Source: Candidatus Saccharimonadota bacterium (GTDB lineage Bacteria > Patescibacteriota > Saccharimonadia > Saccharimonadales > Saccharimonadaceae). From it: a stretch of 32,000 bases of DNA. Below are positions 10,717 through 29,487 of this stretch, piece after piece. The DNA is taken from NCBI RefSeq assembly GCF_025273655.1, contig NZ_CP045921.1, positions 1 through 32,000 of the forward strand, given 5' to 3'. The notes below the pieces were generated by a model, which worked only from the letters and a program-made list of their open reading frames with translations, ran no database searches and had not been told where the DNA came from. How positions within the stretch are numbered: position 1 is the first letter of the stretch; each line of letters starts with the position of its first letter. The translations under genes were made by a program, and so were the position numbers.

Positions 10717-10717
10717 A

Positions 10718-12184: not shown

Positions 12185-12192
12185 GGTACCTC

Positions 12193-15192
12193 CTAGAATT
12201 TCGGCCAATCTGCCGGCACTGGCTTAGTACTGGTTGGTCCTTGAATTTGACCACCCTTGCCGCCAAGCTTTTTGATGAACTTATCCATATATAAACCTGA
12301 GCTTGACGCGTAGCTACCACCTCCGCCTGCATTGTAATCCGACCAACTCACATATCCAGACCCACTTTGTTTGCCGCCGCCTTCCGCAAATCCAAGTTCG
12401 AGCCAAGAATCGGCGTATGTGTAGGTGCAGATTTCCTTGTTGGCATCGACTGTATCACCTTCTTTCACTCTTGGGATACAATCCTCCGTGATATAGACAG
12501 ACTTACCTTTCAGCGATCCGGCCGTAAATTCATATTTGATGTAAGAGCCAGGTACACCAGGCCAACCGGAAGAGCCGGTATCTGGCCAGACACCCGTAAT
12601 TTTTGCAGGGCCAATTGCATAGACGGGTTTACCCTTATCGGTGCTGTTGCCCTGATCGATACCTCCGTCAACACGTTTAGAAACATCTTCCGACTGCGTA
12701 AGGTCGCGGAATGGATCTTTGTATTCACCAGTGCTTGCCCCCTGGCTACAGTCGGCAGTTGCATCCGATGATGAACTTGTAGTTGTGGTCGATGGACTTC
12801 CTCCCCCGTCATCTGTTGAGATACTTGCCTCAATCTCTTTTGGTAACGGTTTACCCTTTGATGCCTCTAGAACTGCTTTCGCATATGTTTGGCGTTGAGG
12901 GACACTTTCGCTGTGGGCTGAACGCTCGTATTTATCGTGGAATGACTGTGTGGCGCCATCAGAAGATGTTTGTTTCTTTAAATCTTCACCCGCCCCTGTT
13001 TCTGGTGATGGTGATTTAGGATCTGTTAATTGTGCCCATAGGAAATCCAGCTGGGTGGCGAGCTGATTGGCGTTTTTACCTGATTTTTTTGTAGGGGTAA
13101 TCATCTTGCCAGCAGGTGTCCACTGGACAATACCCCACCCATTTGAATTGCCCTCTGCTTGGTCTGCCGGAGTTTTTGTCGCAAGGGGGGTACTCTGCAG
13201 GCGTTGAGGGGCTACACCCGACTCGAGAATCATATTGCCCACTACACCGGCAGCTTGTTCAGGAGTGAGCTTCTTACCCACTAGATAATTAAAGGCTTTA
13301 GCGGCATTATTATTGCCCGCCAAGCTGCCGCCGCCCGAATCTGGACAGCAGCTGTTACTTTTTGAGTCCTCAAAAAACCCTTTGCGATTTGCAAGCTCAA
13401 GTGCCTTATTATAAGCATCATTGATACGATCGGCTGGCACACCTTGTTTGACTGCACTGATAATTCTTCCAAGCTGTCCTTCGTCAGTAAATTTGAATAA
13501 TGGTGTATCGACACCGCTATTAAAGCTGTCGACGATTGTCTGCTCTAGGGATTTGCCGTTGTAGTGCGTAAGGGCAGTTAGATCATCTGTCATGACAACA
13601 TCTTGGTAATTGAGATCAGTCTTGAGTGAGTCAATCAGTGTCTTGTTGTTTGGCGCTGGGATATTACCCTGGTTTGAGATGTATGCATTTGAAAGCATGA
13701 CAACAGTACCAGTCGGAAGATCCTTAAATACCGACGCTGCAGGACCGTTTGGGTCGTATGTGGTGGATACGGCAGCCTGGTCGCTATTACCTGATACGCT
13801 ACCAATTCCTGGGAAATGTTTATATACACCAGTGATACCACCCTTGTTAAGACCCTCTGTGAATGCGCGCGCCTTGGCTTTTGTGCGTGCTGCATCGGTT
13901 CCAAATGCACGTCCTCCGTTGAGATGATTGCCCGGGTCTCGTGCACCTAGGTCAACTACCGGAGCAAGATCGACATAGACCCCATTCTCACTCAAGGCCT
14001 TGCCGATCTGTTCACCTGCAGCGGTCACTTCATCATTGGGGGCGTTGCCTAGGTCGGCAGCGGCAGGTGTGCCGATATCATACCGATCAACTACGCCACC
14101 CTCTTCATCTGCCGTGGCGATAAACGAACCGAGCGATTTCTCCCTTGCTTGATCGAAGAACTGTTTATTAAACACGGTTCCGGCACCTTGCCCAGTCATA
14201 AAGAGCCCGCCGAGCTTGTACTTATCTATCATTGCGAGCGGTTGCGCTGGACCGCCACCTACGTCGAAGCCGACTATGAATGTCTTGGCTATTTTCTGCT
14301 CAATAGACGGCTCATTTTTTGTCACATCAGCTTGGGCTGGGTTGGTTGCTGTTCCGGAGGTTCCAGCATTTCCAGAGACACCCTGTTGTGTCGATGAGGA
14401 AAGGTTGGTGGTAGAACTTGCCATCAAGTTGCCGAGACGTGTCATACCAGAGGCAGATGGAATCACAGGAGTACCTGGAGTGGCAGTCTCGTTAATCATG
14501 TCCTTAGGGTCAGCGGTTTTGGCCATCTGCGCCTGGTCTGTTGGGTCGAGTGAAGTGTCGACCGCCTGTGCCCAAGACATTAATTTATAACCCTTTTCAG
14601 ATGCAGTATCTCTGATTGCAAGATTAGTTTTGGCGAATCCAGCGGCACCCGCATAAGGTACAGGGTTGTTGGATGCGTAAGTATCTACCCAGTAATAACT
14701 TGCTTTGGGGCTAAGCTCCTTGAGCTTATCGGCAACTTTACCGATGGATCCCTCATCCGCACCACCATAGGTACCAAGCTGGATGATAATAGCTTGCACA
14801 TCTTTGAGTTTATCCTTTGCTGCATCAAGTTTGGCTGGTGCATCGGCGACAGTTTGTCCGCCGATCCCGTTCACCTCGACGCTTGTATATCCACTGTTTT
14901 TGAGACTGCTGGTGATCGAAGCTTTGGCGGCGTTAGTAATGTCGTCGCCTAGTACATATACATTGCCAAGCGCCGTCGGAGATTTACTAGGTGGTCCACA
15001 TGGTTCATAGTAGAGAACCTGGTTTGTGGCGTAGTCAAACGGATATACGCCTGTTTCGGCTTCGGTTGCTGCTTGGGCTGGTAATGACACGACACCCACG
15101 ACAGCAATTGAGAACATGTTTACACGCAGTATCCACAATAGCTCATGCCGTATTATACTAAGTGTTTTTCGTAGGACTGACAATCGTATCAC
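12193..15192 (-). CDS. Secreted multidomain cell-wall hydrolase: SGNH-like (GDD variant) + GH3 NagZ-like + lysozyme-like + degenerate LytM-like C-terminus (999 aa)
   Basis: Track start GTG 15192 overlaps the TGA of the upstream gene (GTGA). Alternative ATG 15117 gives the signal peptide MFSIAVVGVVSLPAQAA. Motifs: VYVLGDDITN; GH3-like ADEEGGVVDRY, DLAPVVDL, KHFPGIGSVSGNSD, VVMTDDLTAL; lysozyme-like AAGVVGNMILESGV...NGWGIVQWT...QLDFLWAQL. The C-terminal ~178 aa are beta-rich and lack zinc ligands. Confidence 0.8.
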   Translation of the reverse strand: MIRLSVLRKTLSIIRHELLWILRVNMFSIAVVGVVSLPAQAATEAETGVYPFDYATNQVLYYEPCGPPSKSPTALGNVYVLGDDITNAAKASITSSLKNSGYTSVEVNGIGGQTVADAPAKLDAAKDKLKDVQAIIIQLGTYGGADEGSIGKVADKLKELSPKASYYWVDTYASNNPVPYAGAAGFAKTNLAIRDTASEKGYKLMSWAQAVDTSLDPTDQAQMAKTADPKDMINETATPGTPVIPSASGMTRLGNLMASSTTNLSSSTQQGVSGNAGTSGTATNPAQADVTKNEPSIEQKIAKTFIVGFDVGGGPAQPLAMIDKYKLGGLFMTGQGAGTVFNKQFFDQAREKSLGSFIATADEEGGVVDRYDIGTPAAADLGNAPNDEVTAAGEQIGKALSENGVYVDLAPVVDLGARDPGNHLNGGRAFGTDAARTKAKARAFTEGLNKGGITGVYKHFPGIGSVSGNSDQAAVSTTYDPNGPAASVFKDLPTGTVVMLSNAYISNQGNIPAPNNKTLIDSLKTDLNYQDVVMTDDLTALTHYNGKSLEQTIVDSFNSGVDTPLFKFTDEGQLGRIISAVKQGVPADRINDAYNKALELANRKGFFEDSKSNSCCPDSGGGSLAGNNNAAKAFNYLVGKKLTPEQAAGVVGNMILESGVAPQRLQSTPLATKTPADQAEGNSNGWGIVQWTPAGKMITPTKKSGKNANQLATQLDFLWAQLTDPKSPSPETGAGEDLKKQTSSDGATQSFHDKYERSAHSESVPQRQTYAKAVLEASKGKPLPKEIEASISTDDGGGSPSTTTTSSSSDATADCSQGASTGEYKDPFRDLTQSEDVSKRVDGGIDQGNSTDKGKPVYAIGPAKITGVWPDTGSSGWPGVPGSYIKYEFTAGSLKGKSVYITEDCIPRVKEGDTVDANKEICTYTYADSWLELGFAEGGGKQSGSGYVSWSDYNAGGGGSYASSSGLYMDKFIKKLGGKGGQIQGPTSTKPVPADWPKF

Positions 15193-18100
15193 TGCTCTAC
15201 CCCTACATGCATATGGTTACATACGTCGGTTACGAGCTCGCTATTCTTGAGTGATGGAGAAGGTGCTGATGGTGGTTTTGAGAAACATTGTTTTTGGCCC
15301 AGCTCTAATTTGACTCCGGCTGTACCTGCTAAATTATCAAGGTACTCGTAAAACTCCTTAACTATTGGTTTATCCGCGGCCGTCCAGTCGATTCGCATCT
15401 GCTGTGGCTGATCTAGATGCGCAACTCCGTTGAGGTCTACGGCTGAGCCTTTTGGATGCCATCCTCCATCACATTCATGACCAGAGGCTTGAGCGCCGAT
15501 AGTAATTTTGTATTTTTTCGATGCCTCGACAAGCATACCGAGCAGCTTACCATTCATATTAGCTTTTCCACCACAGTCAAGTGTCTGAGTACCATCTTTC
15601 GCGGTTTGTTCCATATAGCCTCGCTGCTCCGGGAGTTGGAATTTCACATTTGGGCTATCAAGCAGCGCTTGAGCGGCCGCCTTGGCGTCATCACCAATTT
15701 CTCCTGTTGCTTCTTCTGCTTTTTGTTCACCTTCGTCCGCTACGCCATCACGGATGTTTTCATCTGCGCGGTAAGCATGGAACATAGCAAGCATGGTGGC
15801 AGTAGTACCCGCTTGATCGCTAGGATATGTGCACCAATCGGCAGTTGCCCAGCTTTCATCCTCCGCGGGCACTTCACCACTCTCTTCGCCTTCTTCGCTG
15901 ACGGCATTTTTGGCAATAGATCCGTCTTCAGATCCGCCTGGATCCTCTACTCCTGCCGGCGCGCTACGTGTTACGCAGTATTTATTATATTTTTTATATA
16001 TTTTAGCTTTATCACTGCTTTCGATTTCGCCGGTATCTTTGTTGATGAACCCTTCGTCTTCCATATATTTGATAACACCTGGGTGCGAATCATCTCCCGT
16101 AGCATCGGCAGTCAAGGCCTCAGTTTCCATGTAGGTTGGCGAGACACAAAATGCATCACCTGCGAATGTATGTGTAGGGTCGCTGTCGACCGATGTGCGG
16201 ACCGCTGGGTCCGGGCAACTGTCTTCATTTTCGTCGTATTGACGCATCTCGTTGAATGTACCTTGTGCGGCGTGTGTCATACCGAGACTACCAACTGTTT
16301 TGGCAGCGAGACTCAGTGAAGATAGCATATTTGGCAGAAGCGATGCCGGGTTCCTACTTGAAGTTAGTGCGCCAGAGTTATAGAGATTATGTGTAATTGA
16401 TCCTAGGAATGAGTACTGGTTTGTCGCATCAAACGGTGTGGCTTGGGCGTCATACTGTTCGGCAAGTCTGTAGCTTGACATGTCGTCTGCAGTATCAGCC
16501 AAGAAGCCCTTATAGGAAGCAGCGTTTGCAAATACCAGTCCATTTGTAAGAGCAGTGTTTTGCATCAGAAGTCCCACGCCGGCGGCGAGGGCATTTCCTG
16601 CGTCTATGCCTTTTGTCTCTTCATCAACGGGCATTTTTGAGAGCCAGTCTATCAGATGCTCAACAAACTTTCCTATTATAGGGGCGAGCAAGGCGCCGAT
16701 GGCGGCCGCTATAACCGGCATAGCGGCAATACATGCCAATACTCCAGGTCCAGTGGCACCAAATAGCTGCGCGCACATAGCTGCGTCGCCGAGTGTTTGC
16801 GCCACTTGTCCATTAATGAGACTGCACATGGATTTAATAAGCGCTTTTCCGGCTTTTTTGGATGTACTGGTGTCGCGTCCGGTCAATGTACTCAAGAAAG
16901 GGGCTACCCCTGTACTGATGAGAGGACTGCCGACCGAGGTCTCAAAACTAGAGAGTACATTTGAAACACTTGCAATCGCAGCACCCCCAATTCGATAGCC
17001 GAGGGCGTAAGTCGAAAGCTCCACTAAGTCGCCATGAAGCAACATTTTCATACCCTCGCCATCAGAGAAGGTGGTTTGGTAGAACCTATTGGGCTTTCCT
17101 CCGCTCGTTGGATTTGTCTCGCTATAATTAAGTCGCCCGCCTATATAGTCGGTGATTTGCTGGTCGCTTTCTCCTGCGATTACTTTGTCGAACTCTACTG
17201 CAAATGACATAAAGAATCTGACCAACATCGCAATTTGAAGCATCTTAGCTCCTATCACAACTGCATTTGCCGTCGTATAGGTGGTGCAGGCCAGCGATAC
17301 GACCGATGAGCCAAGTGAGGTAAGCTTTCCAGCCTTCTCTCTTAGCTTACTTGTTTGCTTCTCTCGATTTTCCCTGACCTTTGAAGAGTCTCCATTGGCA
17401 GGGTCTCCCTCTAACTTCATGGACTGCCGGAACGATTTATCGAGCTCTTTCTTATCTTTACCCTCTAGGCCCGGTCCTTTTGTGATACCCCATCTGGTAG
17501 ATAGCAGCTCCTTGAAACGGCTACTCAAGAACGGCTTCTTGGTTACATCGTACGCACGGTTAATCGCTGCTCGAAAAGCCGGAATGCTTTTGAGTGCTGT
17601 AATCGTAGATGTTTTTGAATCTACCTTATGTTCTTTACCACTTGAATCGGTGACAGTGATGGACTTTATCGTCTTTCTGTCCCCCACGTCATCGCCCAAC
17701 TCTACCTTTATGCCGGCCTTACGCAGGTCTTTTACTAGTTTTTCTGGTGCGGTAACAGCCCTACACATTTTTGATTGCGGCTTCTCGCACGCCTTTTTCG
17801 CCTTATCAGGGTTGTTTTTGTCTGGCATCATCGATGAGAATACAGTCAAAAAGCGAGAGTTCATCGCAGGAGCCGACGTGTCGCGGGCATTGGTGAGATT
17901 TGCTTTGATCGCAGCAAATAATGTTGCTGGCGAGCTGAGAAATACAATGACAATCAAGCCAAAAATAGCAATAATTGCGCCGATAGTTGCAATCGGTCCG
18001 CTAGCCTTTACTCCTTTGAGCTGCCCTTTCCCGCCTCCGCCAACTCCGCCACCAGCCCCCATCGGGTTTTGCTCGCCATCCCGGGCTTTTGGCGTAAGGT

Positions 18101-18368
18101 CGCTACTAGCGGAATCTTTTGCCTCATCTTTTTTCTTGCCGGTGGATTTTGCGGATGGCTGAGGATCTTCGTCTTTATCGGAAGAATCGTCTTTTTTGGT
18201 CGACTGATCTGGCAAGTCCGAGTCAACTGAATTTTTCTCTGCTTGTGATAGCTGCTTAGCCGCCTGATACACTCCTATGGCAGAATTAACTTTATCCTGA
18301 AAGGTTTTCTCTGCAGGATTAAGTTCCTCTTGCTCTTCTTCTGGTGGTATATCAAGTAGCGTCGCCAT
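15189..18368 (-). CDS. Large membrane-anchored protein, paralog of the 978-aa protein, with C-terminal LAS-type Peptidase_M15/VanY-like domain (1059 aa)
   Basis: ATG 18368 lies 3 nt after the VirB4 stop. Acidic/Lys-rich N-terminus, Gly run GAGGGVGGGGKG, TM IATIGAIIAIFGLIVIVFLSS. Central region collinear with 6348-9284. C-terminal WHPKGSAVD (HxxGxAxD) and NHMHVGV (HxH). Confidence 0.7.
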   Translation of the reverse strand: MATLLDIPPEEEQEELNPAEKTFQDKVNSAIGVYQAAKQLSQAEKNSVDSDLPDQSTKKDDSSDKDEDPQPSAKSTGKKKDEAKDSASSDLTPKARDGEQNPMGAGGGVGGGGKGQLKGVKASGPIATIGAIIAIFGLIVIVFLSSPATLFAAIKANLTNARDTSAPAMNSRFLTVFSSMMPDKNNPDKAKKACEKPQSKMCRAVTAPEKLVKDLRKAGIKVELGDDVGDRKTIKSITVTDSSGKEHKVDSKTSTITALKSIPAFRAAINRAYDVTKKPFLSSRFKELLSTRWGITKGPGLEGKDKKELDKSFRQSMKLEGDPANGDSSKVRENREKQTSKLREKAGKLTSLGSSVVSLACTTYTTANAVVIGAKMLQIAMLVRFFMSFAVEFDKVIAGESDQQITDYIGGRLNYSETNPTSGGKPNRFYQTTFSDGEGMKMLLHGDLVELSTYALGYRIGGAAIASVSNVLSSFETSVGSPLISTGVAPFLSTLTGRDTSTSKKAGKALIKSMCSLINGQVAQTLGDAAMCAQLFGATGPGVLACIAAMPVIAAAIGALLAPIIGKFVEHLIDWLSKMPVDEETKGIDAGNALAAGVGLLMQNTALTNGLVFANAASYKGFLADTADDMSSYRLAEQYDAQATPFDATNQYSFLGSITHNLYNSGALTSSRNPASLLPNMLSSLSLAAKTVGSLGMTHAAQGTFNEMRQYDENEDSCPDPAVRTSVDSDPTHTFAGDAFCVSPTYMETEALTADATGDDSHPGVIKYMEDEGFINKDTGEIESSDKAKIYKKYNKYCVTRSAPAGVEDPGGSEDGSIAKNAVSEEGEESGEVPAEDESWATADWCTYPSDQAGTTATMLAMFHAYRADENIRDGVADEGEQKAEEATGEIGDDAKAAAQALLDSPNVKFQLPEQRGYMEQTAKDGTQTLDCGGKANMNGKLLGMLVEASKKYKITIGAQASGHECDGGWHPKGSAVDLNGVAHLDQPQQMRIDWTAADKPIVKEFYEYLDNLAGTAGVKLELGQKQCFSKPPSAPSPSLKNSELVTDVCNHMHVGVEQ

Positions 18369-18371: not shown

Positions 18372-20216
18372 TTATTGGGTTTGACCAGGTTGCTGTTGTT
18401 GCTGCTGCTGCTTGAGCTGTTCTACGGGGTTTGTACTGACGAGCTGTGTTTCTGTCTGGCTAGCGATAACTTGAATATGAACGTGATTTTGGCCGGCAAA
18501 GAAGAGCCCTTGACCCACTGGGAAGTTAGAGAGACGCTTCATTTCCTCTTCGGTGAGCTTGAACACGTTACTGAGTACATCCACTGCACTGGCTGACTGT
18601 TTGAGAAGCAGCTGCATAGATGAGTTTGCCACGATAGCACGACCCATCTTACTGCCCATAAAGTCTTCGACGTCCTGGGTGATAGTGGTGATGCCAAGGT
18701 AATATTTACGTGCACGTTTAGCAAGACTAAAGAGGAAGTTGGCGGAATCCTCGTATTTCATGAGCTGCCACGCCTCGTCCACGATTAACATGCGTTTTTT
18801 GCGTTGCGACCTGGTGATATTCCAGATATGGCTCAGGACGATATACATTGCCACCGGACGTAGCTCATCTTCCAAGTCGCGAATATTAAACACTACCATC
18901 GCATTGTTGATCTCTATATTGCTTTGCTGACTGAAGATACCTGCAAAGGTACCAGAGGTATATTTGCGTAGGCGCTGCGCAAGTTTTGGACCAGAACCCC
19001 CCATGTGGAGTAGTGTATCGTAGAGATCAGCCATGGTTGGCGGCATGCTGTTGTGTGTAAGTGGATCGCTTGTGATGCCTAAGCGCGCATAAGTGTCGAT
19101 TAATGCTTGATCTAGATCAGCCTCTTCTTCAGGGCTGAGGGTGACATTGGTATTTGTAGCGGTGGCTCCACCAAGCATGAGGCGCAGAAGACCATGAAGT
19201 GTTACTAAGTTGGCTCGCAGTGCATCATCAGCCTCGTCGGTGTCGATTACTTTCGGTAAGTCGAATGGATTGATGCGTACGTCAGAATTGAGACTGAGAC
19301 GAATATAGCTACCACCCACTGCATCACTAAGGCGTTGGTACTCATTCTCTGGGTCTATAATAAGTACATCCGCGCCTGTCATCATGGAGCGAACAGCTTC
19401 AAGTTTGACGGTGAATGACTTACCAGCACCAGACTTTGCGAAGACTACCATGTTTGCATTTTCGAGTGTAAAACGGTCAAAAATCACAAGGCCGTTGTTA
19501 TGCATGTTGATACCGTAGAGAATGCCTTTTTCCTGCGTGAGGTCGGCCGAAGTGAACGGGAATGACGTTGAGATCGCACCTGTATTCATATTTCGGCGAA
19601 TTTGTAGCTGGTCCATGAGCTGCGGAACGGTACTGTTGAGCCCCTGCTCCTGCTGACTACTTGCTACTTTACTAAACACCAATTGCTGACCAAAAAGTGT
19701 TTCTACCTTGTTCTGTACAAAAGTGAGATCATCCATACTGTTGGCATAGAGAGTTATATAGAGGCCGTAACGGAAAAATTTCTCACTTCCCACTTGGAGT
19801 TCATCACGTAGTTCTTCAGCATCTTGCAGAGCTGCTTCGAGGCCAGGGTCTCGCGTCTTGCCCTTTTCTTGGTTGATAGACATGCTCGCTTCAAGTTGAG
19901 TTACTTTTTTGCGCAGGTTTTGCATGACGATCTGCGTATCAACTGGATAGAGGAACATACTAACATCGAGCACTTCATCCATGTTGATGATGCTACTGAG
20001 CCAACCGGTGTAGATCTGGCGGGGATATCCATATATATAGAGTGTGCGGCCGTATTTGGTACCAAGACGGAAGTGGTCGGCGTGGAACTCCAGACTGCTT
20101 GGTGCAATGAGATCGCGCAGTGTATTGACGCCTTTGAGAAACGCCTGCTCGACCTCAGCTTGCTCGCGCGCACGTTGTTCGGCAGCTATATCAACTGCGT
20201 CTTTTTTCTTTGCCAT
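18372..20216 (-). CDS. virB4: T4SS VirB4-family ATPase, Gram-positive PrgJ/TcpF/ConE class (614 aa; appears to lack the extreme N-terminal domain)
   Basis: Walker A FAKSGAGKSFT and Walker B RMLIVDEAWQLM. YPRQIYTGWLSSI segment typical of this class. GGGAGAGGGGA SD. ATG overlaps the TAA of the upstream ORF (TAATG at 20214-20218). Poly-Gln C-terminus QQQQQQQPGQTQ (codons 18390-18410). Confidence 0.9.
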   Translation of the reverse strand: MAKKKDAVDIAAEQRAREQAEVEQAFLKGVNTLRDLIAPSSLEFHADHFRLGTKYGRTLYIYGYPRQIYTGWLSSIINMDEVLDVSMFLYPVDTQIVMQNLRKKVTQLEASMSINQEKGKTRDPGLEAALQDAEELRDELQVGSEKFFRYGLYITLYANSMDDLTFVQNKVETLFGQQLVFSKVASSQQEQGLNSTVPQLMDQLQIRRNMNTGAISTSFPFTSADLTQEKGILYGINMHNNGLVIFDRFTLENANMVVFAKSGAGKSFTVKLEAVRSMMTGADVLIIDPENEYQRLSDAVGGSYIRLSLNSDVRINPFDLPKVIDTDEADDALRANLVTLHGLLRLMLGGATATNTNVTLSPEEEADLDQALIDTYARLGITSDPLTHNSMPPTMADLYDTLLHMGGSGPKLAQRLRKYTSGTFAGIFSQQSNIEINNAMVVFNIRDLEDELRPVAMYIVLSHIWNITRSQRKKRMLIVDEAWQLMKYEDSANFLFSLAKRARKYYLGITTITQDVEDFMGSKMGRAIVANSSMQLLLKQSASAVDVLSNVFKLTEEEMKRLSNFPVGQGLFFAGQNHVHIQVIASQTETQLVSTNPVEQLKQQQQQQQPGQTQ

Positions 20217-21304
20217 TAGACGATCCCCTCTCCCATACTCGGCCGTGGTGCCTCTCCTTGCCCCTTGCGAACATACGTAAAGGTATTATTCTGGAAATTA
20301 CCAAGAGGTTCACGTACCGCAGTGTCCGGGTTGTAATAGTTGTAGTATAACTCACCGAGTTCCTTGGTGGTGAGCTGCGTACAATGGACACCCATTTGGA
20401 ACAGGCCGCTTGTCACGGAATCCACGCGGTTTTTGATCTCATCACGAGCCTTTTCGTACGTAATTTTATCGATCTTGGTAACATTTGGTGTGCCACCGCC
20501 GCTTGGGCCGAACATCTTGGCGAAGAAACCCTTACCTGCGTCTTTGATATTACTCAAATCACCTGTTGGCGAAAACGGCACGACTACATAAAAGCTCTTG
20601 TCCATGATATTCGCTTCTTCCGAGAGAATCTCGATAAACTCTATGTAGTCATCCATAAGTACACCAAGGAGCATATTGTCCTGTGTTTTACGAATCTTTA
20701 CTAGTCGGTCTAGATAAGGGCCAATATCAACACGCTGTGAGCGAATGAGAATCTGGACTGGATGTGTCAGTGAATTGATGAAGTTCTGGTAGCTAAATTC
20801 TACCCCTTCGCGTTCACGGGAACTCATGAGGTCGAAGTTGATAGACTTACAAGCGATCACCGCACGAAAACTACCATCGGCCATGATAACCATGTTGTCG
20901 CGAATTTCAGAGAAAAGGAGAGTATTTTGGGTAGTATTTTTAGGCCTCGGAGCGGGTGTTTGAGACTGTTGTTTGCCACTTGCCGGCGCTACTGCGGCAT
21001 CGGGTATGATCGTTGGTGCGGCGACAGGCGTAGGTGCAGGTACGGGCTGGCTATACGCTGGCACCTGTTGCTGCACGCCCGGCATTTGCTGGGGGTAGCC
21101 GGGAACTACTGGGCTTGGCTGTTGCGCTACGCCAGGTTGCTGTGGGTAATATTGTGGCGTAGCAGCAGGTACGGGTTGGCTATACGCTGGCACCTGTTGC
21201 TGCACGCCCGGCATTTGCTGGGGGTAGCCGGGTTGACCGGGTTGTGCACCAGGGTAACCTGGTGAATCCGGTCCTACAGGATACTGCTGATTTTGTGGCT
21301 GCAC
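20216..21304 (-). CDS. Pro/Gln-rich protein whose C-terminal ~230 aa resemble the N-terminal domain of long VirB4/ConE-type ATPases (362 aa)
   Basis: GTG 21304 with GAGGAGGG 6 nt upstream. The first ~130 aa are P/Q-rich with a 43-aa duplication. The rest (LLFSEIRDNMVIMADGSFRAVIACKSINFDLMSSREREGVEFSYQNFINSLTHPVQILIRSQRVDIGPYL) matches my recollection of the first domain of Tn916 Orf16/ConE-like VirB4 proteins. Confidence 0.6.
   Translation of the reverse strand: MQPQNQQYPVGPDSPGYPGAQPGQPGYPQQMPGVQQQVPAYSQPVPAATPQYYPQQPGVAQQPSPVVPGYPQQMPGVQQQVPAYSQPVPAPTPVAAPTIIPDAAVAPASGKQQSQTPAPRPKNTTQNTLLFSEIRDNMVIMADGSFRAVIACKSINFDLMSSREREGVEFSYQNFINSLTHPVQILIRSQRVDIGPYLDRLVKIRKTQDNMLLGVLMDDYIEFIEILSEEANIMDKSFYVVVPFSPTGDLSNIKDAGKGFFAKMFGPSGGGTPNVTKIDKITYEKARDEIKNRVDSVTSGLFQMGVHCTQLTTKELGELYYNYYNPDTAVREPLGNFQNNTFTYVRKGQGEAPRPSMGEGIV
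21037..21232 (-). repeat. In-frame 129-bp-period duplication inside the P/Q-rich coding region
   Basis: A 67-bp segment CAGGTACGGG(C/T)TGGCTATACGCTGGCACCTGTTGCTGCACGCCCGGCATTTGCTGGGGGTAGCCGGG occurs at 21037-21103 and 21166-21232 with one mismatch. The offset is 129 bp, or 43 codons, and encodes PGYPQQMPGVQQQVPAYSQPVPA twice. Confidence 0.9.
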
Positions 21305-21332
21305 TCCCTACCCTCCTCAAGGTATTGTTTGT

Positions 21333-22205
21333 TTAGTGTAGTGATATCTCCACTTCCTCGTCCGGTAGGCCATGCTTCTCTTCTATGCGATGAGCAAGCT
21401 TGCCTACCGTGTCCACCGTGAGTTCATCACTATTATCTATGAGCTTGATTATATCAGGAGATGGGGTGTTAGTGCTAGTGCTTTGAGTCGAGGATGTGTC
21501 TGGCGTTTGAGTGGTAGTGGAAGCGGGCTGTACCACGGTCTGATGAATGGGCGGATAAGGATTGTATTGTAACTGAGGAACTGTCTCTGGTGGGGGTGCG
21601 GCCATTTGCTGCTGGAAGTTGGTTCGTACCTGCTCCATACCCTCTTCATCCCTAGTATCAAGTATTTGGTCGATTTTTTGGGCTTCAACAGTAGTGTCAT
21701 CTAAAATATCCTCGGTTGAGATAGCCTCGTTGTAAGAAGCTTCGTTCATCGACGCGATACCTTGTTGCTGTACGCCGACTCCACGTACCGCCCAGCCTTC
21801 AGACTCTACTATATCTGTAAGATAGCCGAGTCGCCGCTTAGCTTCATCTTGAGATATGTCTTTGGTGAGTTCTGGCTCAAGAGTCTTGGGTGCAGTGATC
21901 TCGATCAGAGAATCGAGACCATCCGGTTGCCAAAAGCGTTTGCGAGGTTTTAGAAAATAAAAAGAGATCAGCGCCCCTAGATATGCCTCCATCGGTTGGT
22001 CTTTTTTGAGCGGCAACGCAAGCGCCCCAAAAAAAACAATCACCGGTAGAACTATTACCACCAGACCGACAAAAATCTGTGACAATACATACCCGACTCC
22101 GATCGCCATTGCGACAATGATGAGATAGATAAACTGGCGGAAACTAAACGGCCCAAGGAGCTTATCGTCCGCCTCAACATCCTGGGGTACCTTGTACACT
22201 GCCAT
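21333..22205 (-). CDS. PrgI-family (VirB3-like) T4SS membrane protein (290 aa)
   Basis: N-terminus MAVYKVPQDVEADDKLLGPFSFRQFIYLIIVAMAIGVGYVL, second TM LVVIVLPVIVFFGALAL, then KKDQPMEAYL, which is the PrgI-family pattern. It sits directly upstream of the VirB4 genes. The C-terminal half is acidic, then P/Q/T-rich. Confidence 0.7.
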   Translation of the reverse strand: MAVYKVPQDVEADDKLLGPFSFRQFIYLIIVAMAIGVGYVLSQIFVGLVVIVLPVIVFFGALALPLKKDQPMEAYLGALISFYFLKPRKRFWQPDGLDSLIEITAPKTLEPELTKDISQDEAKRRLGYLTDIVESEGWAVRGVGVQQQGIASMNEASYNEAISTEDILDDTTVEAQKIDQILDTRDEEGMEQVRTNFQQQMAAPPPETVPQLQYNPYPPIHQTVVQPASTTTQTPDTSSTQSTSTNTPSPDIIKLIDNSDELTVDTVGKLAHRIEEKHGLPDEEVEISLH

Positions 22206-22388: not shown

Positions 22389-22934
22389 TCACTGCGGGTT
22401 GTAACGCCCGCTGAGGTTGAGCATGTCGGAATCGACAGTGACGGTGCCCGGCAGGCGAGAGCATTCGATAGCGCCGAAACCCTTTCCGTAGAGAAAGCGA
22501 TTCATGGCTTCGAGCTGCATCACCGCACCGGCCTGAGCCACGTCGGTATTTGACGCGCCTCCGCAGATTGCAGAGACTGCAGCTTCTGCGATGGCCTGGG
22601 TCTCCGGGTCGCCGAGTACGCTGCATCCCACACCGTCTGCGTAGTCGACATAGGACTGAACGATGTCACTTTCGACGATCGTACGTGGATTGTCGACTTC
22701 ATCGATGCCGTACGTATTGTACAGCTCGGTGAAATTGGCTGGGCAGGTGTTGGAGTCGGGCAGGTTGCTCGAAACCTTCACGTTGGCCTGTTGGGCTGCG
22801 ACCTTGGCGCCGTTGCCGGCACTTTCGCCGCTGTCGTTTGAAGAGCACCCTGTCAGGAACATTGCAATCCCCGAGAGGAAAGCGATTGCCGTCAGGATGA
22901 TCCCCTTGGACCTTTGCTTGTGTGGTGCGAACAT
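22389..22934 (-). CDS. Lipoprotein, unknown function (181 aa), autonomous cassette inside the T4SS-like locus
   Basis: Preferred ATG 22934 with AAGGAAGGTGAT 4 nt upstream. Signal peptide MFAPHKQRSKGIILTAIAFLSGIAMFLTGC with lipobox LTG-C. The mature part has four Cys residues. The track start 22973 adds 13 aa and cannot be fully excluded. By hand count the coding region is about 59% G+C (lines 22381-22860). Confidence 0.75.
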   Translation of the reverse strand: MFAPHKQRSKGIILTAIAFLSGIAMFLTGCSSNDSGESAGNGAKVAAQQANVKVSSNLPDSNTCPANFTELYNTYGIDEVDNPRTIVESDIVQSYVDYADGVGCSVLGDPETQAIAEAAVSAICGGASNTDVAQAGAVMQLEAMNRFLYGKGFGAIECSRLPGTVTVDSDMLNLSGRYNPQ

Positions 22935-22982
22935 GACAATCACCTTCCTTTCTATTGGGGACGAAGGGGTCATGTACTCGTG

Positions 22983-23042: not shown

Positions 23043-25586
23043 TTATGCGAATGGATTTGAAATCTGCTTGATAAGCTCTTGATTATTTGATTTTGCGAGA
23101 GTGGTCGGATTACCACGAAGTGCTTTTGCTGTCTCTATCATGTTGCGTGTACCTGCTCCATCTGCCGCGTTCATGGCATATTCAAGTATATGCTTGTCTG
23201 CTGTCGCCATGCCCTCTTGCGACATGGCGTTGTTGGCAAGGTTCTCGCGCACTCGCTCTGTGAATGACGCATTACTACCTTGTCCAGATGCATACTCTTG
23301 GATATCGCGCGCTGTCATTACTGCGCCGGCATGTTCGTTGACTGCTGTTGTGACTGTACGAAGTATAACCTGCGGGGCACCTTTATCTCTGGTCAGTTCA
23401 TCGACATAGTGTGCATAGCCATGGTGTGCTTGGCCACTCTCGTCATCAAAACTTCCGACCTGATGCCTAGCTACGTATTCTTTGAACGCGGCAGCGACCA
23501 TTTCCGGTGTTTGGTTGGCACGGTCATCAAGTACGCGCTCGAGCTCGCTATAGTCGGCATGCTGGAGTGAAAGGCCATGGGCGGACACCAGAGAGTCTTG
23601 CTCATTTGCGAGTTCGAGTTCTGCTTGCCCCCTCATTGCGGCCGCAAGATTATCGTTACCCCCCGCCATCTTTTTGGCATACTTTGGATCTTTGAATTGT
23701 TGATTGGTATAGTTTCGCTGTGCATAATTGAGTGCGTTTTGGGATTCAGTATCTTTCTGCTCGTTCATCATTTGCCGATGGTAGCGTCCACCCAATGCGG
23801 AGCCCGCCACACTGCGCGCTCGTCGCTTGACTCCTCCGTCCCCCTCTTTCGGTGTCACGATTTGCCCGAATTTACCACTGTAGGCACGTGCGGTAGCTTC
23901 TTTTTGTTTGCGGTTTGTGAATCCTGTCGCTCGATCTGAGAGTTTTTTGCCCACACCTTTCGCTCGAGACGACAATCCACCGGCAAATTTGGCAAGTTTT
24001 CCGCTTGATTTTAGTAAAAAGTACGTCATGAATAACGGTGCCGTCTGGACGCCAAGCGCGAATACCTGCATAAGTGCCCCGGGACTTGCAGAAAGAAGTA
24101 CGTTTGAAGCAAGTTTTGAGGCTCCAAAAAGAAGTGATATAACGGGGAACATAACAAGTAGTTTTACAAACAACCCCATCCAGCGATCGAACCATTTTTT
24201 GGTATTGGGCAGCAGGAACATTACGAAAATTATTGGCGATAAAACGATGAGAATCGTGATAAACGCTTGTCTAGCGATGAGAATAATCACAACTGTCGCA
24301 ACAGCAACTATGGCACTAATGATAACAGGAGCGAGAAAACCTAGGAGTGCAAACATACTACCTCCTATGACAGATCCACCCACCGCTATAACTGCAGTGG
24401 ATGCTGCACCAATAACAAGCGTACCAGCTAGTACACGAGAGGTTACTGTTTCAAATGTCGAGTTATTGCCTTGCGGCTGTTGCATACCCTCGAACAATTC
24501 TTTCATGGAGTAGCCAGCGATATTGGATATATCAACAGCTAGCATACAGATCCAGAATGATGTATTGACGAGAACTGCAGCTACAATCATGCGAGGGAGT
24601 AGTTTCTTGATACCGTAGTTACTGATCCCCTGTCCTGTTACCTGCGACCAAATGATAAAAAGAAATACGATCACAAACATTACGTTTGCGAGCAGCAAAA
24701 ATCGTGACCAAGATTTCTGCAGTTGAGCACGATTTGTAGGATTAGAGAGACTGTCGTAGCGAAGTAGTGGTTGTAGAAAATTATAGTATAGGCCATCGGC
24801 TATTTTGGCGGTGAATGCCATGGCTGGGCAGATCAGCCAGCCGATTCCTCCGACAACACATACGTCCTTTTTCCCATTTTTGGGTTTTGATTGAAATACA
24901 CCCTGGAGTGCCTCAGCTGGATAGCCGGTTTTTTGCGACATGCATTTATATAGGTCAGCCTCGGAGACGGTTTTAGAAATTCGGCCGGCACCACCGAGCT
25001 CGTTATAGCAATCGTCAAATGCCTTGTTGAGCTTCTTTTTGCAGCCGGCTAGATCCGTTGGTGAAACTTGCTGACAGACGGTTTCAGCGCCGTTATTAAG
25101 CCCTTCGCGCCTGTTGTTTAGGGCCGTACGCTGCTTACCTTTACCATCTTTCGCGTTACCGTTATTGATGGTGATGTTGAGGCGTGCACCATCTCCGCTA
25201 CCAAACCGATAACATCCAACACCATTGTTGCGAGTTGGTATGAGTACGGCTTCGCCTGCTTCGTTGACGTTTCCTTTGAAGCCAATATAATCATCGCACC
25301 CAGTATAGTCATTATCTGTATACCAATGGTCGAAGCCGGATAGGTTTTTAACAGCTCCGTTCGGCGTGCCACTCGAGGTAAAAGACATGCCGTTGTAGTT
25401 GAGGTGGTCGCCGTCCCAGTTTGCGTTTGTAGGGCAACCATCAAAGTTGTAGCCAGTTGAGAGAGTATTACTTGTGGTCTCAGAGCCACAGTTTAGCTTC
25501 GAGGCATGAACTTGCTGTGAAGTTGTAACGCACAGTAGTATACTTGCCGCTACTGCTGTCGCCAAGAGGTAGAATATCTTATTCAC
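23043..25586 (-). CDS. VirB6/TrbL-like polytopic T4SS membrane protein, paralog A (847 aa)
   Basis: GTG 25586. Signal peptide MNKIFYLLATAVAASILLCVTTSQQVHA. About 250-aa Cys-containing ectodomain (DGCPTNANWDGDHLNYNG...SGTPNGAVKNL). GIGWLICPA motif, then at least six hydrophobic helices (FLLLANVMFVIVFLFIIW, MIVAAVLVNTSFWICMLAV, AFITILIVLSPIIFVMFLL). About 300-aa hydrophilic tail. The family call is by topology and resemblance only. Confidence 0.65.
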   Translation of the reverse strand: MNKIFYLLATAVAASILLCVTTSQQVHASKLNCGSETTSNTLSTGYNFDGCPTNANWDGDHLNYNGMSFTSSGTPNGAVKNLSGFDHWYTDNDYTGCDDYIGFKGNVNEAGEAVLIPTRNNGVGCYRFGSGDGARLNITINNGNAKDGKGKQRTALNNRREGLNNGAETVCQQVSPTDLAGCKKKLNKAFDDCYNELGGAGRISKTVSEADLYKCMSQKTGYPAEALQGVFQSKPKNGKKDVCVVGGIGWLICPAMAFTAKIADGLYYNFLQPLLRYDSLSNPTNRAQLQKSWSRFLLLANVMFVIVFLFIIWSQVTGQGISNYGIKKLLPRMIVAAVLVNTSFWICMLAVDISNIAGYSMKELFEGMQQPQGNNSTFETVTSRVLAGTLVIGAASTAVIAVGGSVIGGSMFALLGFLAPVIISAIVAVATVVIILIARQAFITILIVLSPIIFVMFLLPNTKKWFDRWMGLFVKLLVMFPVISLLFGASKLASNVLLSASPGALMQVFALGVQTAPLFMTYFLLKSSGKLAKFAGGLSSRAKGVGKKLSDRATGFTNRKQKEATARAYSGKFGQIVTPKEGDGGVKRRARSVAGSALGGRYHRQMMNEQKDTESQNALNYAQRNYTNQQFKDPKYAKKMAGGNDNLAAAMRGQAELELANEQDSLVSAHGLSLQHADYSELERVLDDRANQTPEMVAAAFKEYVARHQVGSFDDESGQAHHGYAHYVDELTRDKGAPQVILRTVTTAVNEHAGAVMTARDIQEYASGQGSNASFTERVRENLANNAMSQEGMATADKHILEYAMNAADGAGTRNMIETAKALRGNPTTLAKSNNQELIKQISNPFA

Positions 25587-25598: not shown

Positions 25599-28124
25599 TT
25601 AAAAATTGCCCTTTGCAAAGTTGTCGATAGAGCCTTTGGATTTACCAACACCAGTGTAGGCTTGGCTTCCTTGAAGGTTTTTTGCTGCACCCGTAACTTG
25701 TTGCTGAATAGCCTGATTGTTTTTGGCCAGATCTTTAATATGTGCTATCTCGTCTGCCCCAGCACCTGCAAGACCATTGGCCGAAAGCCTACCGCCAGCA
25801 AGCTGTTGTGAGACCATGTCATTAAAGCTTGAAACGTTTTGCTCAGGATTGATCATTTGACCGTTAGAGATAGCTGCCTTATTGGCTGCTCCGAGGTATG
25901 CGCTTCCAGAAAGAGCCCCGGCGGTTGCACGAGTAATGACGTTTGCATGGCCTTTGGCCTCTTCTTGAGTTTTATTGATATATTTGCCATACCCAGGGGT
26001 GGTTGTGCCGTCTTGGTTGGTCTTGTCTGCTACATCGCCTATTTTAATCAATTGCGCCAAGGCTGCTGCTTGTTCCTCTGCACTAGTATTTTTATCATCG
26101 AGTATCTTCGCAAGATCTTCGGCAGTCTTTTCTGCCATGACATATGACAAACCTTTTAGTACATCGTCCTCTGCTTTGTGTGCCCCAGCTACGGCTTGCC
26201 CTTGAAGTACTGCATCAAGTCGAGCATTTCCTGTATTCGCACCGCTCATTAGCCTGTCGCGATTAAACTCACCCTGGCTGTATTTGAGCGCTTGTTCTGC
26301 TCTTGCGTCTTTTTCTTTACTATTGAGGTCACGCACAAACGAGCCTGATCCAACCCTTCGTCCAATATGCTTTGCCTTGCCCCATGCACCAGTCGGTGGA
26401 TTCACCTTGTCTGCATAGAGGCCGGCTGCGTTGCGCATTTGGCGGCGTTTGAGCATTTGTTGGCCCTTGTTGTTTGCGCGATCGAGTAGGCCTTTGGTCT
26501 TGTCGTTTGAGATAGCACCGATTTTACCAAGCATACCTCCGGTGCTTTTGAGTATTGCCGGGATGATAAAGAGTGGAATTGCCATGAGTCCTAGCGAGAA
26601 TATCTGCGTGAGTACACCGGTATCACCAAGTAGCACTACACCGGCCGCAAACTGGGCACCACCAAACACTAGGGCTACAAAGGGGTATAGCAGCAGCATG
26701 GAAATGAAGGTATCTTTCCAGCGATCAAACCACTTAGAAGTGTTCGGCAAAAGATAGGCTACAAATGCAAGCGGAGAGATGACTACCAGTATAGTGATTA
26801 TCGCTTGTCTGGCTACGAGGATCAAGATGACTGTGAGTGCAGCAAAAAGTGCCGAGAGCATGACTGGCAGTAGAAATGATAGTGTGCCAAGTAATGCACC
26901 AGACGCCGCGATACCTGCCACCACGACAGTACCGCCAAGCACTCCGGCCATAACGGTCTCAAACGTACTTGGCGTTTGGGCTCCTGCACCAGTTTGTCCT
27001 GTGGAGACTATGAGTTCCTTGAGGTTTGCGCCAATAATATTAGAGAGGTCTACCGCAACAATACAGACCCAGAAAGATATATTGACAAGAATCGCGGCGA
27101 TAATGATACGCGGCAGTAGTCGCTTGATGCTGTATGTGTTGAGTCCGGCTCCCGTGATTTGTGAATAGATGACAACTAGAAACGCACCGATAAATGCCAC
27201 GTTTGCGAGGTTACGCATGTTAGACCACTGGGTTTTTAGCGAATCTTGACTCTGTTGATTTGCCAATGAATCATAGCGCAAAAAACCCTCTAAGAAGTTG
27301 AATACCCCATCGGTTAGTTTGGCAAGAAAACTCGAAGCAGGACATATAATCCAACCAATACCGTCTTGGATTTTACAGGCGACCTGGGCATCGTCGGGGG
27401 GGTTGAACAACCCGGAGAGCTTATCTTTTGGGTAACCAGTTTTTCCTGCTATACATGTGAGCATTTTGTCTTCTGACTCTTTGTTGGCTGGTGTCTTCGC
27501 GCACTCGTCAAATGCGTTAGATATCTTATCTCGACACGCCTGGGCATTATCTGGATCGACGCTTTTACATATTTCGTCGACGTTTTCTTCTAGATTTTCT
27601 TTGGTGATATCTTCATTATTAGCCCCAGTGCCACTAGGAGAACCTTGATTATTCTTACCTTTGCCATTATTGAGGGTGATTTCCTTTTTTGCCGAGTTAT
27701 AGAGTGCACAACCGCCTCCGTAACCATTTCCAAAATGCGTAGGTATAACAGTAGCCTTCGTGGCTGTTTCTGGTGATCCATTGAAGGCTATATAGTCCGA
27801 GCAACCGGCAGTGACATCATTGTCATAGTAGTGTTCCCATCCAAGACCTTTTACTGCTCCGTTTGGTGTTCCACTCTTATTAAATGTTTCACCACCATAG
27901 TTGAGGTGATCTCCATCCCAGTTTGCATTACCGGGACAACCATCCCATTTATAGCCATTGTAACCGGTAACATAGTTTCCGCTAGCTTCACCACAGTCAA
28001 GGGCGTGCGCTGGACCCGCTGTCAGTGTCGAAATGAATACTGTAGTAAACAGACCCAAAAAGGCACTCACGATGAGATGAGTGAATGTTTTCCTGCTAGT
28101 TTTAATATCTACCCTTTTCATCAC
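25599..28124 (-). CDS. VirB6/TrbL-like polytopic T4SS membrane protein, paralog B (841 aa)
   Basis: ATG 28124, or the adjacent ATG 28121 with better spacing from GAGGGTG. Hydrophobic N-terminus. Ectodomain DGCPGNANWDGDHLNYGG...SGTPNGAVKGL, GIGWIICPA, and a TM core collinear with paralog A (RLLPRIIIAAILVNISFWVCIVAVDLSNIIG versus KLLPRMIVAAVLVNTSFWICMLAVDISNIAG). Divergent C-terminal tail. Confidence 0.65.
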   Translation of the reverse strand: MMKRVDIKTSRKTFTHLIVSAFLGLFTTVFISTLTAGPAHALDCGEASGNYVTGYNGYKWDGCPGNANWDGDHLNYGGETFNKSGTPNGAVKGLGWEHYYDNDVTAGCSDYIAFNGSPETATKATVIPTHFGNGYGGGCALYNSAKKEITLNNGKGKNNQGSPSGTGANNEDITKENLEENVDEICKSVDPDNAQACRDKISNAFDECAKTPANKESEDKMLTCIAGKTGYPKDKLSGLFNPPDDAQVACKIQDGIGWIICPASSFLAKLTDGVFNFLEGFLRYDSLANQQSQDSLKTQWSNMRNLANVAFIGAFLVVIYSQITGAGLNTYSIKRLLPRIIIAAILVNISFWVCIVAVDLSNIIGANLKELIVSTGQTGAGAQTPSTFETVMAGVLGGTVVVAGIAASGALLGTLSFLLPVMLSALFAALTVILILVARQAIITILVVISPLAFVAYLLPNTSKWFDRWKDTFISMLLLYPFVALVFGGAQFAAGVVLLGDTGVLTQIFSLGLMAIPLFIIPAILKSTGGMLGKIGAISNDKTKGLLDRANNKGQQMLKRRQMRNAAGLYADKVNPPTGAWGKAKHIGRRVGSGSFVRDLNSKEKDARAEQALKYSQGEFNRDRLMSGANTGNARLDAVLQGQAVAGAHKAEDDVLKGLSYVMAEKTAEDLAKILDDKNTSAEEQAAALAQLIKIGDVADKTNQDGTTTPGYGKYINKTQEEAKGHANVITRATAGALSGSAYLGAANKAAISNGQMINPEQNVSSFNDMVSQQLAGGRLSANGLAGAGADEIAHIKDLAKNNQAIQQQVTGAAKNLQGSQAYTGVGKSKGSIDNFAKGNF

Positions 28125-28733: not shown

Positions 28734-28734
28734 T

Positions 28735-29157: not shown

Positions 29158-29159
29158 AT

Positions 29160-29459: not shown

Positions 29460-29487
29460 ACGGATTAAATAAACGAAGGAACGAATA

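Follow-up and report, generated by a model that had tools for sequence, protein, structure and literature searches.

This locus raises the question of whether a VirB4-type ATPase spread over two abutting reading frames in a member of the Saccharibacteria is a single protein broken by accident, or a protein that is made of two chains. We analyzed a chromosomal stretch of 32,000 nucleotides (the window). We give a probability of about 85% to the reading that the locus is a conserved and, by prediction, functional TrsD-type two-gene VirB4, within a chromosomal, origin-proximal type IV secretion system (T4SS) of Saccharibacteria (Patescibacteria). The upstream frame, ORF-A, encodes a variable, disordered Pro/Gln tail and then the first subdomain (~220 residues) of the VirB4 N-terminal region; ORF-B encodes what remains of that region, and the ATPase domain with its Walker A and B motifs. 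The two frames are connected stop to start (TAATG), with an internal Shine-Dalgarno sequence. Coordinates are collected in Table 1.

Table 1. Position of the two VirB4 frames, their junction and neighboring features in the window.
Feature	Position	Strand	Basis or remark
dnaA	1-1371		
dnaN	1657-2757		
ORF-B	18372-20216	minus	614 aa, ATG start; from ORF list; short VirB4 ATPase (middle region and RecA-like C-terminal ATPase domain)
TAATG junction	20214-20218	minus	one base common to ORF-A stop and ORF-B start
ORF-A	20216-21304	minus	362 aa, GTG start; from ORF list
Conserved ~240-aa domain of ORF-A, residues 123-362	20216-20938	minus	homologous to single-chain VirB4 residues ~9-224
Shine-Dalgarno-like GGGAGAGGGGA for ORF-B	20224-20234	minus	inside 3' end of ORF-A coding sequence
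Pro/Gln-rich low-complexity N-terminal tail, ORF-A residues 1-122	20939-21304	minus	composition
77-nt direct repeat, two copies	21027-21232	.	96% identical, 129-nt spacing
Shine-Dalgarno GAGGAGG of ORF-A	21312-21318	minus	7 nt before GTG; strong
PrgI/VirB3-like membrane protein, 290 aa	21333-22205	minus	Pfam PF12666, E 2.7e-14; directly upstream of ORF-A
Six T4SS_pilin genes (PF18895)	28269-30760		VirB2-like pilin array

The product of ORF-B carries a Walker A motif (AKSGAGKS, residues 260-267) and a Walker B motif (MLIVDEA, residues 476-482), residues 226-593 match the VirB4 C-terminal domain of PDB 4ag5 (E 4.8e-46), and the NCBIfam model of the CD1110-family VirB4 (NF045971) scores 375 bits, above its cut-off of 325 bits. 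However, ORF-B covers only positions 177-734 of the 752 of this model, and its start corresponds to residue ~222-231 of single-chain VirB4. The original prediction of an ATPase without the extreme N-terminal domain was therefore right, as the first ~176 model positions are missing. The ORF-B polypeptide does not contain a complete VirB4 N-terminal region, and the missing part is supplied by ORF-A.

The homology of ORF-A was decided by a match to a single-chain VirB4 of Bacillus cereus and by a family HMM. Residues 37-209 of the B. cereus pJ62_2 protein (830 aa) aligned with ORF-A residues 136-336 (BLASTP, E 6e-12), and its residues 228-821 aligned with ORF-B residues 17-601 (E 3e-70), thus the two products tile one VirB4 collinearly. 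Residues 9-224 of single-chain VirB4 were matched by the HMM built from the ORF-A family with an E of 1.3e-18; the same HMM matched S. aureus TraD (E 9e-6) and residues 22-97 of the Lactococcus single-chain VirB4 (E 8e-4). Pairwise BLASTP of ORF-A with the last two proteins was too weak alone (E 0.05 for TraD; E 0.62 for the Lactococcus protein, though collinear). The VirB4 N-terminal pattern originally noted in the C-terminal part of ORF-A is real: IRDNMVIMADGSFRAVIACKSINFDLMSSREREGVEFSYQNFINSLTHPVQILIRSQRVDIGPYL is present there, and the equivalent segment of the B. cereus protein lies at residues 37-98. Also, NCBIfam VirB4_plasma matched ORF-A (E 2.2e-5), and the precomputed annotation assigns Pfam PF26593 to the database protein identical to ORF-A and, among the homologues listed, to 120 of 120. 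Other Pfam models gave nothing significant on ORF-A or its domain (best TraC_F_IV, E 0.11), and a PDB sequence search with ORF-A and its family profile returned zero matches even at E 10. The NCBIfam TrsD/TraD model (NF041427) scored 26.4 bits (E 5.4e-6), far under its curated cut-off of 200 bits. Since this score reflects remote homology only, ORF-A is TrsD-like and stands outside the staphylococcal/enterococcal subfamily. The summed length had been expected near 800 aa; the homologous domain and ORF-B together reach 854 aa (240 + 614), somewhat above the single-chain proteins used for comparison (795-831 aa).

The predicted fold points in the same direction. The AF2 model of the ORF-A domain was of moderate quality only (mean pLDDT 62.6, pTM 0.54). 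In a Foldseek search of the PDB its top 13 matches were all R388 TrwK/VirB4 (E 2e-4 to 6e-3), the next match having an E of 0.2, and TrwK/VirB4 was the only PDB fold family matched. The TM-scores to TrwK were low (~0.39) and the match was not localised within TrwK. The R388 protein (cryo-EM structures 7O41-7O43, 8RTB and 8RTD) is a single-chain VirB4 of a diderm system, and its sequence similarity to ORF-A is undetectable. Sequence and fold together, with the position directly upstream of an N-truncated VirB4 gene, mark ORF-A as a TrsD-like protein. The end of ORF-A showed many invariant columns in the alignment, yet a pLDDT below 50. These last ~40 residues, strongly conserved but modelled as disordered alone, are a likely docking segment for ORF-B.

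The junction was found as originally described: the TAA stop of ORF-A (20218-20216) and the ATG of ORF-B (20216-20214) overlap by 1 nt, and on the minus strand the sequence reads ...GGGAGAGGGGA-TCGTC-TAATG-GCA, which places the embedded Shine-Dalgarno-like run 7 nt before the ATG. We compared the loci of 80 Saccharibacteria species, in 79 of which the junction was measurable. VirB4 was split in all 80, and an uninterrupted ORF, the outcome that would have contradicted the prediction, occurred in none. The stop-to-start spacing ranged from -14 to +3 nt, the identical 1-nt overlap was found in 51/79 loci, and an SD-like run stood at the equivalent position in 76/79. This pattern is far beyond chance.

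These comparisons bear on two explanations in which the protein is, or recently was, a single chain. One is that a mistake in sequencing or assembly, or a frameshift that has recently turned a single virB4 into a pseudogene, produced the split; the adjacency of the two frames is all that speaks for it. It would have to account for the same split in 80 independent species assemblies, for more than 5720 stand-alone homologues of ORF-A, and for plasmids of Bacillota, Actinomycetota and Archaea that were sequenced independently and share the split, and we regard it as practically negligible. The other is recoding at TAATG, by programmed ribosomal frameshifting or by read-through of the stop codon, with one fused VirB4 chain as its product; it is suggested by the abutting frames and by the in-frame TAG-ATG or 3-nt spacers seen in 6 of the 79 relatives. 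Nevertheless, the spacing varies by species (-14, -8, -4, -1, 0, +1, +2, +3), and since the relative frame varies with it, no single recoding event is conserved. Every locus also retains a Shine-Dalgarno sequence and a start codon of its own, and the N-terminus that follows is conserved and MAKKK-like; a slippery heptamer was not evident in the TAATG junction, so that recoding appears very improbable. On this comparative evidence from the Saccharibacteria loci we rejected an assembly error, a pseudogene and a programmed frameshift alike.

The two-gene arrangement extends beyond this lineage. The order PrgI/VirB3, small protein, short VirB4 was observed in Pontibacillus and Clostridioides (Bacillota), in Miltoncostaea (Actinomycetota) and in the haloarchaeal Haladaptatus, and an adjacent traD-traE pair is present on an S. 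aureus plasmid. The ORF-A-like proteins carry extra segments that differ by lineage, namely hydrophobic N-terminal helices, Pro-rich C-tails or acidic tails. In a neighbor-joining tree of VirB4, which comprised 9 sequences only, the fused B. cereus protein clustered with the split S. aureus TraE (100% bootstrap). This clustering hints that more than one fusion or fission event may have taken place.

The N-terminal piece was also correctly described as rich in Pro and Gln: Pro and Gln make up 47% of residues 1-122 of ORF-A (31 Pro, 26 Gln), and this part contains no hydrophobic segment. A 21-aa unit, YPQQMPGVQQQVPAYSQPVPA, occurs twice in it, at residues 27-47 and 70-90, as a consequence of the direct DNA repeat listed in Table 1. 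Tandem Repeats Finder reported nothing in the Pro/Gln region, the repeat being two dispersed copies. Across 120 homologues of ORF-A the length of the tail varied from 0 to 147 aa, whereas the domain behind it remained nearly constant (234-240 aa). The Pro/Gln tail is specific to the Saccharibacteria lineage. The orthologues of Pontibacillus and Clostridioides have hydrophobic N-terminal helices instead, which are likely membrane anchors.

ORF-B is encoded together with VirB3 and VirB6-type channel genes. The PrgI/VirB3-like protein is constituted of a PrgI domain (residues 5-91) and an acidic Q/P/S/T-rich tail of ~200 aa. The TrbL/VirB6 match in an 847-aa protein was weak (E 0.0043); this VirB6-like protein has an 841-aa paralogue (37% identical). 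The VirB4, TrsD-like, PrgI/VirB3, VirB6-like and pilin genes of the locus, on the chromosome and near dnaA, match the gene set of the MPF-FATA-derived T4SS of Patescibacteria, and the nearest genomes all belong to Candidatus Saccharibacteria/Saccharimonadales. Among the ORFs scanned in the 32-kb window, neither a relaxase nor a coupling protein was found. The 1059-aa protein downstream of ORF-B showed no detectable similarity to the ~1050-aa peptidoglycan hydrolase that occupies the equivalent position in Pontibacillus.

According to the available text of previous studies, the T4SS of Patescibacteria, the same phylum-level lineage, likewise combines VirB6-like, PrgI/VirB3, TrsD-like, VirB4 and VirB2-like pilin genes beside dnaA/dnaN (PMC12102498, PMC10633639). 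Quinonero-Coronel et al. 2025 (PMC12102498) describe TrsD as remotely homologous to the N-terminus of VirB4. Of all T4SS components they report it to be the most abundant in Patescibacteria and usually located beside virB4, with 1664 of 2272 homologues adjoining that gene. The essential cluster of Southlakia epibionticum ML1 is given as SEML1_0006-0019 (Wang et al. 2023, PMC10633639), and the ML1 copy of TrsD is listed as essential (PMC12102498). The arrangement of TrsD/TraD with a short VirB4 is thus already established and named, and reported for Patescibacteria, in the available text of PMC12102498, from which our locus shows no essential difference. Because the arrangement has already been catalogued at scale, the locus is one well-documented example and not a discovery. 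A 'split' VirB4, a stop-start coupling or a Pro/Gln tail is not described in the available text of the two papers. The word TrsD is absent from the main text of Guglielmini 2014, and the accessible part of the pIP501 literature contains no statement on TraD function.

Other systems differ from the locus in some details. In the staphylococcal pGO1/pSK41 TrsD/TraD-TrsE/TraE pair (MPF-FATA subclass, NF041427), the gene of a ~227-aa protein lies directly upstream of that of a ~670-aa N-truncated VirB4-like ATPase, and S. aureus TraE aligns end to end with ORF-B (E 8.8e-41). TraD, of very low similarity to ORF-A, has no Pro/Gln tail, and the plasmid system is conjugative, has a relaxase and separates traD from traE by 20 nt where the frames overlap here. 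The closest relative found outside Patescibacteria was the T4SS of the Pontibacillus sp. ALD_SL1 megaplasmid, with the same gene order (VirB6-like, small PrgI-sized ORF, 274-aa ORF-A orthologue, 621-aa VirB4, ~1050-aa protein). Its 274-aa protein is 26% identical to ORF-A (E 2e-26) and begins with a hydrophobic helix in place of the Pro/Gln tail, its VirB4 matches ORF-B with an E of 1.2e-125, and its two VirB4 pieces also overlap. Single-chain monoderm VirB4 of the CD1110 family/PrgJ type, for example in Lactococcus pUCCL633B (795 aa) and B. cereus pJ62_2, likewise follows a PrgI/VirB3 gene; ORF-A and ORF-B cover it in full, with its domains in the same order, in two polypeptides rather than one.

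The geometry of the junction suggests translation of ORF-B by coupled re-initiation, and the amounts of the two polypeptides would then stay near 1:1. The ORF-A and ORF-B chains would then associate non-covalently, probably through the conserved end of ORF-A, into a complete VirB4 protomer. This protomer may dock on the PrgI/VirB3-like protein encoded just upstream and would form a hexameric motor on the cytoplasmic side of the channel. The Pro/Gln tail could act as a fast-evolving flexible spacer in place of the hydrophobic helix of the Pontibacillus and Clostridioides orthologues.

A protein that derives from the VirB4 N-terminus could also have become an independent accessory or regulatory factor (chaperone, adaptor, gatekeeper) and no longer be a stoichiometric part of the protomer. 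The different extra segments found in each lineage are in line with this view, as are, in the available text of PMC12102498, the Gracilibacteria TrsD homologues, mostly located away from virB4, and the fact that no function is given to TrsD. However, ORF-A supplies exactly the segment missing in ORF-B, single-chain VirB4 is tiled without duplication, and the length of the ORF-A domain is nearly invariant. The tight stop-start spacing in 79/79 measurable loci also argues for matched amounts of the two products, and we consider an accessory role unlikely.

The two-chain protomer can be placed in a wider frame, to which we give about an even chance. TrsD-type proteins would be the detached first subdomain of VirB4, obligatory in trans in every protomer, and the break point would be a hinge of repeated fission and fusion in the systems of monoderms and archaea. 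The putative anchor helix of the Bacillota orthologues compared would have given way, in Saccharibacteria, to the fast-evolving Pro/Gln tail, which, with the disordered tail of the VirB3-like protein, might provide a flexible tether, or a step at which the assembly of an essential, non-conjugative T4SS is regulated.

Saccharibacteria have been reported to require their T4SS for epibiotic growth on host bacteria. Once the TrsD-like gene is recognized as the front end that VirB4 lacks, a protein called functionless in the literature acquires a concrete and testable role. This reading is also a warning to annotators and modellers, as the 'VirB4' of Saccharibacteria and of pGO1/pSK41-type resistance plasmids would, judging from the sequences, be a two-chain protein.

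The 614-aa product of ORF-B is clearly a VirB4. It scored 375 bits against the NCBIfam CD1110-type model (cut-off 325), matched the crystallised VirB4 C-terminal domain 4ag5 (E 4.8e-46), and its Walker A (AKSGAGKS) and Walker B (MLIVDEA) motifs are both intact. Only positions 177-734 of the 752-position CD1110-type model were covered, and the start of ORF-B corresponds to residue ~222-231 of single-chain VirB4 proteins. The extreme N-terminal domain is thus missing, as stated in the original prediction, which proposed a VirB4 split into two translationally coupled ORFs.

Neither the local Pfam copy nor PDB sequence searches yielded a match for the upstream ORF-A. A weak match to NCBIfam TrsD/TraD was obtained (E 5.4e-6). 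As its score against the staphylococcal TrsD/TraD model (26 bits) is below the curated cut-off of 200, ORF-A is best called TrsD-like. It also weakly matches the NCBIfam mycoplasma VirB4 model at positions 232-280, and the match of ORF-B to the same model begins at position 292. In the single-chain VirB4 of B. cereus pJ62_2 (830 aa), residues 37-209 aligned with ORF-A residues 136-336 (E 6e-12) and residues 228-821 with ORF-B residues 17-601 (E 3e-70), only ~18 residues being unaligned at the junction. Therefore, the two ORFs tile one VirB4 collinearly. A family profile of ORF-A built from 50 homologues matched Bacillus single-chain proteins (residues 9-224, E 1.3e-18), S. aureus TraD (E 9e-6) and a Lactococcus single-chain VirB4 (residues 22-97, E 8e-4). 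The pJ62_2 alignment and this profile bear out the assignment of the C-terminal part of ORF-A to the VirB4 N-terminal domain. When plasmids were searched by tblastn with this domain as query, 84 records were obtained, mostly stand-alone "hypothetical proteins"; some of the matches fall inside long DUF87/VirB4 genes. The AlphaFold2 model of the domain was moderate in quality (pLDDT 62.6 on average, 70-87 in the core). The top Foldseek matches in the PDB were 13 chains of R388 TrwK/VirB4 (E 2e-4 to 6e-3), followed by a first other match at E 0.2. Because TM-scores against TrwK were low (~0.39) and the aligned TrwK region was not reported by Foldseek, we take this fold match only as supporting evidence for ORF-A as the front part of VirB4. 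Between them, ORF-A and ORF-B supply every part of a VirB4.

On the minus strand the junction reads GGGAGAGGGGA-TCGTC-TAATG, in which base 20216 belongs both to the stop codon (TAA) of ORF-A and to the start codon (ATG) of ORF-B. A purine-rich run lies at 20224-20234, 7 nt ahead of this ATG, and ORF-A has its own SD, GAGGAGG, 7 nt ahead of its start codon. The two ORFs, their coordinates, the 1-nt overlap and the SD inside ORF-A had all been described correctly. One scan of species-representative genomes yielded 80 loci from different Saccharibacteria. In every one, the ORF-A homologue stops and the VirB4 homologue begins at the same spot, and no fused form was present; the proposed check of relatives for the same split was thus positive. 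Stop-to-start spacing ranged from -14 to +3 nt in the 79 measurable junctions, with a 1-nt overlap (TAATG, TGATG or TAGTG) in 51 and an SD-like run upstream of the VirB4 start in 76. A conserved programmed frameshift is unlikely because the relative frame varies between species; ordinary termination-reinitiation coupling would be the simplest reading. Within this lineage, adjacency and stop-start coupling of the two genes are universal. As explanations, assembly error, pseudogene formation and recoding can effectively be discounted.

The predicted P/Q-rich N-terminal extension of ORF-A was recovered: residues 1-122 contain 31 Pro and 26 Gln, and no hydrophobic segment was found there. A 21-aa unit occurs twice in this tail and goes back to a direct DNA repeat of 77 nt (96% identical), a recent duplication which illustrates the mode of tail length change. 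The close homologues are all Candidatus Saccharibacteria/Saccharimonadales; among the 120 listed, the conserved domain keeps to 234-240 aa and the extension measures 0-147 aa, with a median of about 62 aa and typically 35-60% Pro+Gln. In the Pontibacillus (L002:3112-3936) and Clostridioides (L089:3378-4322) orthologues, this place is taken by a hydrophobic helix that is probably a membrane anchor. In other lineages, ORF-A-like proteins are extended at one end or the other by Pro-rich or acidic segments. C-terminal extensions of ~90-120 aa occur in Miltoncostaea, Salinigranum and Clostridioides. Both termini of this small protein thus vary greatly between lineages. The PrgI/VirB3-like protein (290 aa) has an extra ~200-aa acidic, Q/P/S/T-rich tail and is far longer than the annotated PrgI-family proteins of the Clostridioides and Miltoncostaea loci (102-122 aa). 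ORF-B ends in a poly-Gln run, QQQQQQQPGQTQ. Low-complexity tails thus occur on all three cytoplasmic-face components. We infer that the Pro/Gln tail of ORF-A has no catalytic role and serves as a flexible spacer in the cytoplasm, close to the membrane face.

The window, with a G+C content of 48.9%, is part of a Saccharibacteria (TM7, Patescibacteria) chromosome, and its T4SS cluster adjoins the replication origin, a position reported for many Patescibacteria. Both the proximity to dnaA and the pilin arrays have already been described in the literature. After the origin genes, a minus-strand block contains several large peptidoglycan hydrolases and type IV secretion genes, including the consecutive PrgI/VirB3-like, ORF-A and ORF-B trio (see table).

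Features of the T4SS region and its surroundings
Feature	Position	Strand	Remarks
dnaA, dnaN, recF-like gene	1-3808	+	start of window
453-aa protein	within 5072-18368	-	phage-tail lysozyme domain
978-aa protein	within 5072-18368	-	Peptidase_M23
999-aa protein	within 5072-18368	-	glycoside hydrolase family 3 + lysozyme domain
1059-aa protein	within 5072-18368	-	no family match
ORF-B	18372-20216	-	614 aa
ORF-A	20216-21304	-	362 aa, GTG start
PrgI/VirB3-like gene	21333-22205	-	Pfam E 2.7e-14
194-aa ORF	22389-22973	-	between VirB6-like and PrgI-like genes; lipoprotein-type signal (…FLTGCSS…)
VirB6-like paralogues (tandem)	23043-25586, 25599-28124	-	847 and 841 aa
Six T4SS pilin genes (array)	28269-30760	+	divergent in sequence; Pfam PF18895, E 4e-5 to 4e-13
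Hsp20/alpha-crystallin small heat-shock protein gene	30829-31317	-	just after pilin array

The pilin array is transcribed in the opposite direction, divergently from the T4SS core genes. Three of its six members also match TrbC/VirB2, and it agrees with the pilin array that has been reported as essential in Saccharibacteria. The VirB6-like paralogues are 37% identical over ~820 aa; both show a Cys-rich, extracellular-looking N-terminal domain, followed by a polytopic core in the membrane and a long hydrophilic C-terminal part. A weak TrbL/VirB6 match (E 0.0043) was obtained with the 847-aa paralogue. The 194-aa ORF gave no match in the family search and is a possible T4SS-associated lipoprotein. 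Downstream of virB4 there is a series of very large cell-wall enzymes that are probably secreted. Similarity between its 1059-aa member and the ~1050-aa hydrolase at the same Pontibacillus position was not detectable.

Outside Patescibacteria, an ORF-A-like gene precedes a short VirB4 on a Pontibacillus megaplasmid (26% identical, E 2e-26) and a Clostridioides plasmid, in the actinomycete Miltoncostaea and the haloarchaeon Haladaptatus, and on staphylococcal pGO1/pSK41-type plasmids, where the pair is annotated as traD and a DUF87 protein. In the loci where a PrgI-family gene is annotated, it is the immediate upstream neighbour. In a neighbour-joining tree of the ATPase part (nine sequences only), TraE of S. 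aureus, a split form, clusters with the fused proteins of Bacillus at 100% bootstrap, which hints that fusion or fission may have occurred more than once. Small plasmids of the Bacillus cereus group that encode a single-chain VirB4 carry a gene annotated "pilin" two genes upstream of virB4 (L004:2719-3033, L005:2749-3063). This was unexpected since Gram-positive T4SS are usually said to lack VirB2-like pilins.

TrsD is the most abundant T4SS component recovered in Patescibacteria, with 2272 homologues, 1664 of them VirB4-associated, and the Southlakia epibionticum ML1 copy is on the essential list; the same study regards TrsD as remotely homologous to the N-terminus of VirB4 (Quinonero-Coronel et al., 2025, PMC12102498). 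The essential T4SS cluster was described as containing a pilin array and lacking relaxase and coupling proteins (Wang et al., 2023, PMC10633639). The present locus agrees with the published Patescibacteria T4SS in every tested respect. Thus, the original prediction, made from sequence alone, is right in both observation and interpretation, and the ORF-A/ORF-B arrangement is already published and universal in this lineage. Relative to the consulted passages of PMC12102498, three incremental additions are made: the collinear tiling is set out explicitly, the stop-start coupling is shown to be conserved, and a Pro/Gln tail of variable length is described where the examined Bacillota orthologues have a hydrophobic helix.

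Coupled translation would supply matched amounts of the two chains. The main rival explanation is that ORF-A is now a separate accessory factor. The last ~40 residues of ORF-A, which contain many invariant positions and are disordered in the model of ORF-A alone, are probably the contact with ORF-B, through which the two chains would associate into a complete VirB4 protomer. The single-chain VirB4 of the R388 T4SS is a VirB3-bound, hexameric motor. As in such single-chain systems, the ORF-A/ORF-B complex would bind the VirB3-like protein and form a hexameric motor.
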